The translations under genes and the position numbers were made by a program. A stretch of DNA of 7,836 nucleotides, from positions 1 to 7,836 of the IMG/VR virus record IMGVR_UViG_2695420687_000010; one strand, given 5' to 3'. The notes below the pieces were generated by a model. That model did not search any database, was not told the DNA's origin, and worked only from the letters and a program-made list of their open reading frames with translations. Positions 6,876 to 7,836 of the stretch are shown piece after piece (the stretch's first letter is position 1; each line of letters begins with the position of its first letter). The DNA is from a virus (Duplodnaviria > Heunggongvirae > Uroviricota > Caudoviricetes).

Positions 6876-7064
6876 ACTTTCTACCGGACGCGCCCACAGG
6901 GCTTCATCCAGCCGGTAAGCCTGCTGTTCATCTTCACAGGCGATGAGTACGCGCTTACCGTTGCGCCAACGTTCTGCGGCAATTTCACACACCAGCTGCT
7001 CAACGGCGCTTAAGCCATCGACGGTGGTGTCATTGTCCAGAAGGTAGAACGTTGCGTTTTTCAT
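6876..7064 (-). CDS. holC: DNA polymerase III chi subunit, 5' fragment (first ~63 codons), fused in frame to the capsid ORF
   Basis: From ATG 7062-7064: MKNATFYLLDNDTTVDGLSAVEQLVCEIAAERWRNGKRVLIACEDEQQAYRLDEALWARPVES matches recalled E. coli HolC residues 1-63. The next codon contains N at 6875 (ntt, compatible with Phe64 of HolC); after it the sequence is capsid, not HolC. Confidence 0.85.
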
Positions 7065-7116
7065 ATATGAGGCTTCTTGTGGTGGATTTAAATACACATC
7101 AGGTAAACACCGTATT

Positions 7117-7153
7117 GCCCGATGCGACGCTATCGCGTCTTATCAGGCCTACG
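7117..7153. repeat. REP (repetitive extragenic palindromic) element
   Basis: gcccgatgcgacgctatcgcgtcttatcaggcctacg matches the E. coli REP consensus (GCCKGATGCGRCG...CGYCTTATCMGGCCTAC), in the holC-pepA intergenic region. Confidence 0.8.
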
Positions 7154-7167
7154 AGTTCAGTGCTGTG

Positions 7168-7203
7168 TAGGTCGGATAAGGCGTTTACGCCGCATCCGAC
7201 AAT
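7168..7203. repeat. REP element in inverted orientation (forms a BIME with the 7117-7153 copy)
   Basis: taggtcggataaggcgtttacgccgcatccgacaat is the reverse-complement form of the REP consensus, 14 nt from the first copy. Confidence 0.8.
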
Positions 7204-7220
7204 AACAATGCCTGATGCAA

Positions 7221-7331
7221 TTACTCTTCGCCGTTAAATCCGGCGCGGTTTAGCAGGAACTGTGCCAGCAACGCTACCGGACGACCGGTTGCGCCTTTTG
7301 CCTTGCCAGAACGCCAGGCGGTTCCGACGGT
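7221..7331 (-). CDS. pepA: Aminopeptidase A (leucyl aminopeptidase, M17 family), 3' fragment (last ~36 codons)
   Basis: C-terminal translation ..[34 protein letters not shown] matches the recalled E. coli PepA C-terminus. Stop TAA at 7221-7223. Native synteny (pepA upstream of holC with REP in between) is preserved for this block. Confidence 0.8.
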
Positions 7332-7478
7332 GTCCAGCGCTGCCATTTCAGCGTCACGCGTTACTTTCGCCAGAATAGACGCGGCGCTGATTTCCGGCAC
7401 GCGGCTATCGCCTTTAACTACTGCCATCGACGGCATAGGCAATTTCGGACAGCGATTCCCATCAATCAATACATATTC
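7332..7478 (-). CDS. rnhB: Ribonuclease HII, internal fragment (about 49 codons), fused in frame to the pepA 3' fragment
   Basis: [49 protein letters not shown] matches recalled E. coli RnhB (about residues 103-151), including the conserved RNase HII motif SIAAASI(L/I)AKVxRD. Flanking sequence on both sides is not RnhB. Boundaries are approximate (+/- 6 nt). Confidence 0.75.
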
Positions 7479-7769
7479 CTCCTTGGTGTAGGAATCTGGT
7501 GTCGGGCATTCACATTCAAGAGAAACCTTCGTGCCATTCGACCAGTTCATAACATCGGGCAAAACCGTATTCGCTACGTTCTTTTTTAGGCTGCGTCGTA
7601 AATGCGCGAAATGCTTCTGATTTTGCGTGTTGTTAGCATACAGGCGTAGTAGTAGCGCCAATGCGCTATCTTTCTCCAGTATGCTATCGCCTGCAATGTC
7701 TGGAGGTATTTCATCTGTGAATAAATCATCAAAATCCACCTCACACCTCCAGATGTGATAATTCGGCAC
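7479..7769 (-). CDS. Unidentified ORF fragment (about 86-96 codons) fused in frame to the rnhB fragment; hypothetical protein
   Basis: Minus-strand translation (V)[96 protein letters not shown] is not recognised from memory. Start candidates: GTG 7767-7769, or GTG 7737-7739 preceded by GGAGG at 6-nt spacing. In-frame TAA 18 nt upstream of 7769 bounds the ORF. Confidence 0.35.
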
Positions 7770-7836
7770 GTAATTCTCGTAGTCGTGTTATCGTTTCGTC
7801 ATAGTGCGCAATATTACTTTGCTTATCATTGTATTG

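Follow-up and report, generated by a model that had tools for sequence, protein, structure and literature searches.

The LeoA/LeoBC bacterial dynamins of ETEC (PMC4159319) have a split GTPase and comprise LeoC (206 aa), LeoB (572 aa) and LeoA (577 aa); PADLOC lists them as the Eleos anti-phage system. The locus examined here contains a short piece of a different operon of dynamin-family genes, embedded in a reading frame that had been flagged as unassignable to any family. The window, meaning the whole stretch of DNA that was analysed, is the entire 7,836-bp draft contig CDRK01000176.1 (GCA_000936005.1). Its minus strand holds an open frame running from GTG at 7769 (the mechanical start) or GTG at 7739 to TAA at 7223–7221. 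This frame is made of four butt-joined pieces, derived from a dynamin-family gene, an LpfD-like gene, rnhB and pepA, all on the same strand, in frame with one another and each read in its native frame. Since the four share strand and frame, a gene caller reads a single 172-aa product across them. We consider the frame, with a probability of about 0.9, to be an artefactual chimera from assembly or library preparation, and neither a gene nor the carrier of a function.

A megablast search with 7836–7400 (minus strand) against 5,426 complete E. coli genomes returned matches to only five plasmids, which covered just 7836–7587 (250 nt). These bases, the dynamin-operon piece of the contig (7587–7836, minus strand, 99.6–100% identity to E. 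coli plasmids), are identical at 250 of 250 nt to plasmid NZ_CP148580.1 (locus L001), and the same stretch is found on an E. albertii IncF plasmid at 99–100% identity. At 7741–7836 lies the 3' end of the second dynamin-family gene of the operon (WP_001072867.1, 724 aa), its last 31 codons and the TGA at 7743–7741 being 100% identical to L001:6001–6096 (CDS 3922–6096). The contig end truncates this fragment, and a 31-residue gene is called there. One intergenic base separates that TGA from the GTG of the 405-aa third gene (WP_001346274.1), whose first 51 codons fill 7587–7739 on the minus strand with 100% identity to five E. coli plasmids. The first-pass annotation had proposed GGAGG, a 6-nt spacer and GTG at 7739–7737 as the start of the flagged frame, and it was right: this GTG is the annotated CDS start of WP_001346274.1 (L001 CDS 6098–7315), and the GGAGG Shine-Dalgarno at 7750–7746, 6 nt upstream, is also present in the native plasmids. 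Nucleotide identity and the shared start therefore both tie this piece to an annotated dynamin-family gene.

The native WP_001346274.1 runs on as ...RRSLQEYLPE, and the window departs from it after codon 51, at 7587. In the 405-aa parent, Dynamin_N (PF00350) is matched at residues 98–264 with 62.7 bits, so the window carries only a stub that precedes the domain. Residues 1–51 belong to the N-terminal extension alone; the P-loop is missing, and so is the GTPase domain, which in the parent begins at about residue 95. The fused product holds these 51 residues only and returned no Dynamin_N match, and it does not qualify as a Dynamin_N or P-loop protein.

The next piece, at 7480–7586 on the minus strand, is a 107-nt internal fragment of an LpfD-like fimbrial gene (codons 53–87 plus 2 nt), also in its native frame. 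Sensitive blastn of 7600–7470 found 76% identity to the E. coli "fimbrial protein" gene located between lpfC and lpfE, which is lpfD. A degenerate-pattern scan of species-representative genomes for this piece led to one locus, in E. albertii NBRC 107761 (L006), and local BLAST then gave 100% identity to L006:2705–2811, inside a 355-aa ORF at 2549–3616. The order of genes there is an 841-aa usher-like ORF, the 355-aa ORF, a 178-aa ORF and an eptB-like ORF, the E. coli counterpart being lpfC, lpfD, lpfE and eptB. The parent thus occupies the interval between usher and lpfE that is expected in a chaperone-usher operon, a position that the piece in the window does not share, its flanks being the dynamin and rnhB pieces. 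When compared with NF011753, the LpfD equivalog model, the full-length E. albertii parent scored 288.5 bits, under the curated cut-off of 412, so on its profile score we call it LpfD-like rather than an equivalog.

The third piece is an internal fragment of rnhB of ~146 nt (about 7334–7479, minus strand; approximately codons 102–150 of 198, or nt 306–452 of 597), with 87–89% identity to E. coli rnhB. The Pfam family RNase_HII (PF01351) matches residues 86–149 of the fused product, at profile positions 98–171 of 199 only, and the product has no full-length RNase HII catalytic domain. The frame then closes in the 3' end of pepA (7221–7333, minus strand), which contributes its last ~36 codons and the TAA. 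This end is natively contiguous with REP elements and holC, and the contig retains that arrangement: the pepA-holC intergenic region with its REP elements and the first 63 codons of holC follow at 6876–7220, up to the N at 6875, where holC is fused in frame to the prophage capsid gene. Over window 6872–7337, the block aligns to K-12 pepA-holC (L009) at 92% identity. REP-type repeats at 7115–7205 also match E. albertii and E. coli lpf/eptB intergenic DNA and K-12 DNA downstream of ydgA, and are ordinary REP elements. None of the pieces in the fused ORF retains the functional (catalytic) core of the gene that it comes from.

Ungapped alignments to both parents place the dynamin–lpfD join at 7587/7586, where it is blunt (CTA/AAA), falls on a codon boundary and has no microhomology. 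The lpfD–rnhB join, at 7480/7479, is likewise blunt and lies inside a codon (GA/G), with ...CCAAGGA on the lpfD side and GGAATATG... on the rnhB side. The rnhB–pepA join lies within 7332–7337, near 7334, with 0–2 nt of possible microhomology; it is placed within a few nt, the comparison having been made with E. coli and E. coli-like references. An RNase HII variant with the same Ser (P0015) was considered as an E. albertii rnhB reference and set aside as E. coli-like (~87% DNA identity). The native flanks of the dynamin and lpfD pieces differ from the window directly past the joins. All three joins are free of N, show 0–2 nt of microhomology and preserve strand and frame; because they are blunt and share so little sequence, overlap-driven (simple k-mer) misassembly is ruled out for them.

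These boundaries account for most of what the first-pass annotation had described. It had seen a coding fragment fused in frame to the rnhB piece, with its C-terminus cut near 7478, and the join at 7480/7479 bears this out. The second join, at 7587/7586, breaks up what it took for a single ORF fragment of ~90 codons into two unrelated gene fragments. All the features that it listed are present (an acidic stretch, a basic stretch and the Cys-x-Cys motif ECECPTPDS), but not as parts of one gene: the basic segment (ending KKN) straddles the dynamin–lpfD join, and the motif belongs to the lpfD piece, where it is the conserved "CEC" of LpfD. The SD-like AAGGAGG noted at the boundary does span the lpfD–rnhB join, but it is a string created by that join and not a ribosome-binding site. 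Nor is the segment without a family, as both of its pieces are 100% identical to native genes, one for a dynamin-family GTPase and one LpfD-like (NF011753). The suggestion that it came from an ordinary E. coli or prophage gene holds insofar as the parents are ordinary mobile or accessory Escherichia genes. No megablast match to 7400–7836 was found among 50,697 phage records, and a phage origin was rejected for that stretch. A clear match to a well-characterised housekeeping gene had been proposed as grounds for losing interest in the segment, and in spirit this is what happened: the matches are clear, although the genes matched are annotated accessory genes and not housekeeping genes.

The rest of the contig has the same character. 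It is composed of at least eight unlinked pieces, among them narZ, manA-ydgA, prophage, holC-pepA, rnhB, lpfD and plasmid DNA. An internal fragment of narZ (nitrate reductase Z alpha subunit; 1–142, 94% identity to E. coli) is joined through NNN at 143–145 to manA-ydgA (146–2145, 86.5% identity to K-12), in which manA lacks its first ~30 codons. An N at 2146 separates ydgA from a 52-nt piece (2147–2198) that sits before a phage tape-measure fragment and matched nothing in the fetched loci or among the E. coli hits listed. The HK97-type prophage block, from tape measure to capsid (2199–6874), is 99.9% identical to E. coli prophages and is followed by the N at 6875 and by the minus-strand holC 5' part, REP elements and pepA 3' end (6876 to ~7333). 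In reference genomes, the source loci of the pieces are megabases apart or on different replicons. The core genes rnhB, pepA, holC, manA and narZ are represented in the window by internal or terminal fragments only, and several pieces are the size of sequencing reads (52, 107, 142 and ~146 nt). Because the contig packs at least eight unlinked pieces into 7.8 kb, several of them read-sized, and has Ns at three of its joins, we regard it as chimeric.

Six N characters occur in the contig (143–145, 2123, 2146 and 6875), every one of them at, or no more than ~25 nt from, a join of unlinked pieces; their positions are consistent with placeholders inserted by a scaffolder. The N at 6875 lies within a second artefactual fusion ORF (5694–7097, minus strand), in which the first 63 codons of holC are read in frame into the HK97-type major capsid gene. 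That capsid gene is without its first ~12 codons, and the public record lists the fusion as a gene of 456 aa. For the prophage block, identity to the prophages of numerous E. coli strains stands at 99.9%, against only 86–92% between the chromosomal pieces and E. coli; either the phage is common to several Escherichia species or the sample was mixed. The 8–14% divergence of the chromosomal pieces from E. coli, together with the identity of the lpfD piece to E. albertii, suggests a host that is probably E. albertii-like. A literature search on CDRK01 and GCA_000936005 found no paper.

A genuine gene would be expected to recur in independent genomes, and the fused coding arrangement does not. The 172-aa product is a singleton, with 1 member on 1 contig, in a collection of ~15 billion proteins. 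In the megablast search with 7836–7400, no record covered 80% or more of 7400–7836 among the 5,426 E. coli genomes and 72,556 plasmids.

Which genes the pieces come from and where each one stops was observed directly, as were their blunt joins, the unique occurrence of the fusion, the mosaic make-up of the contig as a whole and the Ns found at other joins. An origin of the joins in vitro or in silico is what we infer. Ligation or template-switch chimeras formed in the sequencing library could have produced them. Alternatively, they may stem from read-sized mini-contigs that were scaffolded and had their gaps closed, as could happen with a mixed or contaminated sample. The pieces would have been drawn from unlinked sites in the genome of an E. 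albertii-like host, in its plasmid and in a prophage.

The aspect of the joins that sits least easily with an accident is their register. The holC–capsid join keeps strand and frame, as do the three joins of the flagged frame. Random joining would be expected to give this with a probability of (1/6)^3 = 0.005 for the three joins, or ~0.01–0.02 for four of 6–7 joins, estimates that are post hoc, the ORF having been noticed for being open. A succession of blunt joins that preserve strand and frame hints that the process was not random. We nevertheless judge it improbable that a real process lies behind it, be it a fusion locus truly scrambled in the strain or template switches made in the sense strand from one transcript to another.

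A chimera of non-random molecular origin would result if template switching had taken place in the sense strand on transcripts, with cDNA or RNA present in the library. Such switching forces same-strand joins and raises the odds of an in-frame join from 1/6 to 1/3 each. It also agrees with the joins as a set: five of the 6–7 join the same strand, and all N-free joins connect the coding strands of expressed genes. Against this, ydgA and the tape-measure fragment converge at their join, there is intergenic DNA in the pepA-REP-holC piece (although a single transcript could span it), there is no sign that RNA was present, and chance is still required for the frame to be kept. We think it very unlikely that the joins arose in this way.

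It is a shade less likely again that the mosaic is physically real, with repeated illegitimate recombination having built an in-frame dynamin-LpfD-RNaseHII-PepA fusion under the Shine-Dalgarno and GTG of the dynamin gene. The three joins are indeed clean, N-free, same-strand and in frame, and a bona fide Shine-Dalgarno and start stand ahead of the fusion. Yet at least eight unlinked pieces, some of 52–147 nt, would have had to be assembled within 7.8 kb, and Ns mark the other joins. The resulting protein would consist of pieces without their catalytic cores (Dynamin_N begins at residue 98 of its parent, and RNase_HII is covered at positions 98–171 of 199), and the fusion is found once in the protein collection. 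No recombination mechanism known to us strings blunt, read-sized pieces of core genes together one after another.

The view that the segment is one uncharacterised gene of at least ~90 codons, its 3' part replaced by rnhB, has next to no chance of being correct: its frame is continuous and its start good, but the native dynamin-family gene and the window diverge past codon 51, and codons 52–86 are 100% identical to the interior of an E. albertii lpfD, which refutes it.

The flagged segment is thus almost certainly not a real feature, but part of a chimeric reading frame. The case calls for caution over fused "proteins" from this contig that stand in public collections, namely the 172-aa product annotated as RNase_HII and the 456-aa holC-capsid product. 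Mining for novel ORFs or domain fusions would be misled by such products, and resolving the chimera removes a false lead. What is worth retaining as a biological pointer is solely the triple-dynamin operon from which the stub derives. It may merit a study of its own, and it is not encoded by the window.

The parent operon has three dynamin-family genes in a row (563, 724 and 405 aa), each matching Dynamin_N with a complete domain, and after them an 829-aa CFI-box-CTERM gene (NF041770). It is located at L001:2209–9797 (NZ_CP148580.1) and in E. albertii NZ_CP030779.2 (L004), where it adjoins IS elements on IncF plasmids. The triple-dynamin operon is rare (5 of 5,426 complete E. coli genomes), and the subfamily of the 405-aa protein is small, with 42 clusters at E ≤ 1e-5 and relatives in Chlorobium, Vibrio and Lachnospira MAGs. 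In a chicken E. coli plasmid (NZ_CP148424.1, L002:3922–6096), the annotation splits the 724-aa dynamin gene into three separate short ORFs of 516, 807 and 450 nt, which suggests an operon in decay or a record that contains sequencing errors. A literature search found no paper that mentions "CFI-box". The operon, combining three dynamins with a CFI-box-CTERM gene and having no literature, could represent a new system for membrane remodelling or for defence against phages.

As a whole, the window resembles chimeric short-read draft contigs: it is short, contains many unlinked read-sized pieces, has Ns at several joins and yields a unique product. It differs from them in that the three joins of the flagged frame have no N and nearly no microhomology and keep strand and frame, which is unusual for overlap-driven misassembly. 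The fimbrial piece aligns to residues 52–86 of E. coli LpfD (long polar fimbriae; minor subunit or adhesin) and shares the conserved CEC motif with it, but the window holds only 35 of the 355 codons of the E. albertii parent. From the WP_001346274.1 operon the window has a 250-nt stub with 51 of the 405 residues of the third dynamin.

For the parent operon, the best relative in the PDB is the C. jejuni DLP pair (5owv). A PDB sequence search with the operon dynamins gave no match to LeoA, and the PADLOC matches of the operon were weak at 16–33 bits (27 bits for LeoA; 33 and 22 bits for LeoBC). Given these results and the different architecture, we judge LeoABC orthology unlikely. LeoA/LeoBC is the nearest described analogue, but only distantly similar: like it, the parent operon encodes tandem dynamin-like GTPases, but these are of 563, 724 and 405 aa, each with a complete Dynamin_N domain where Leo has a split GTPase, and they are accompanied by the additional CFI-box-CTERM gene.
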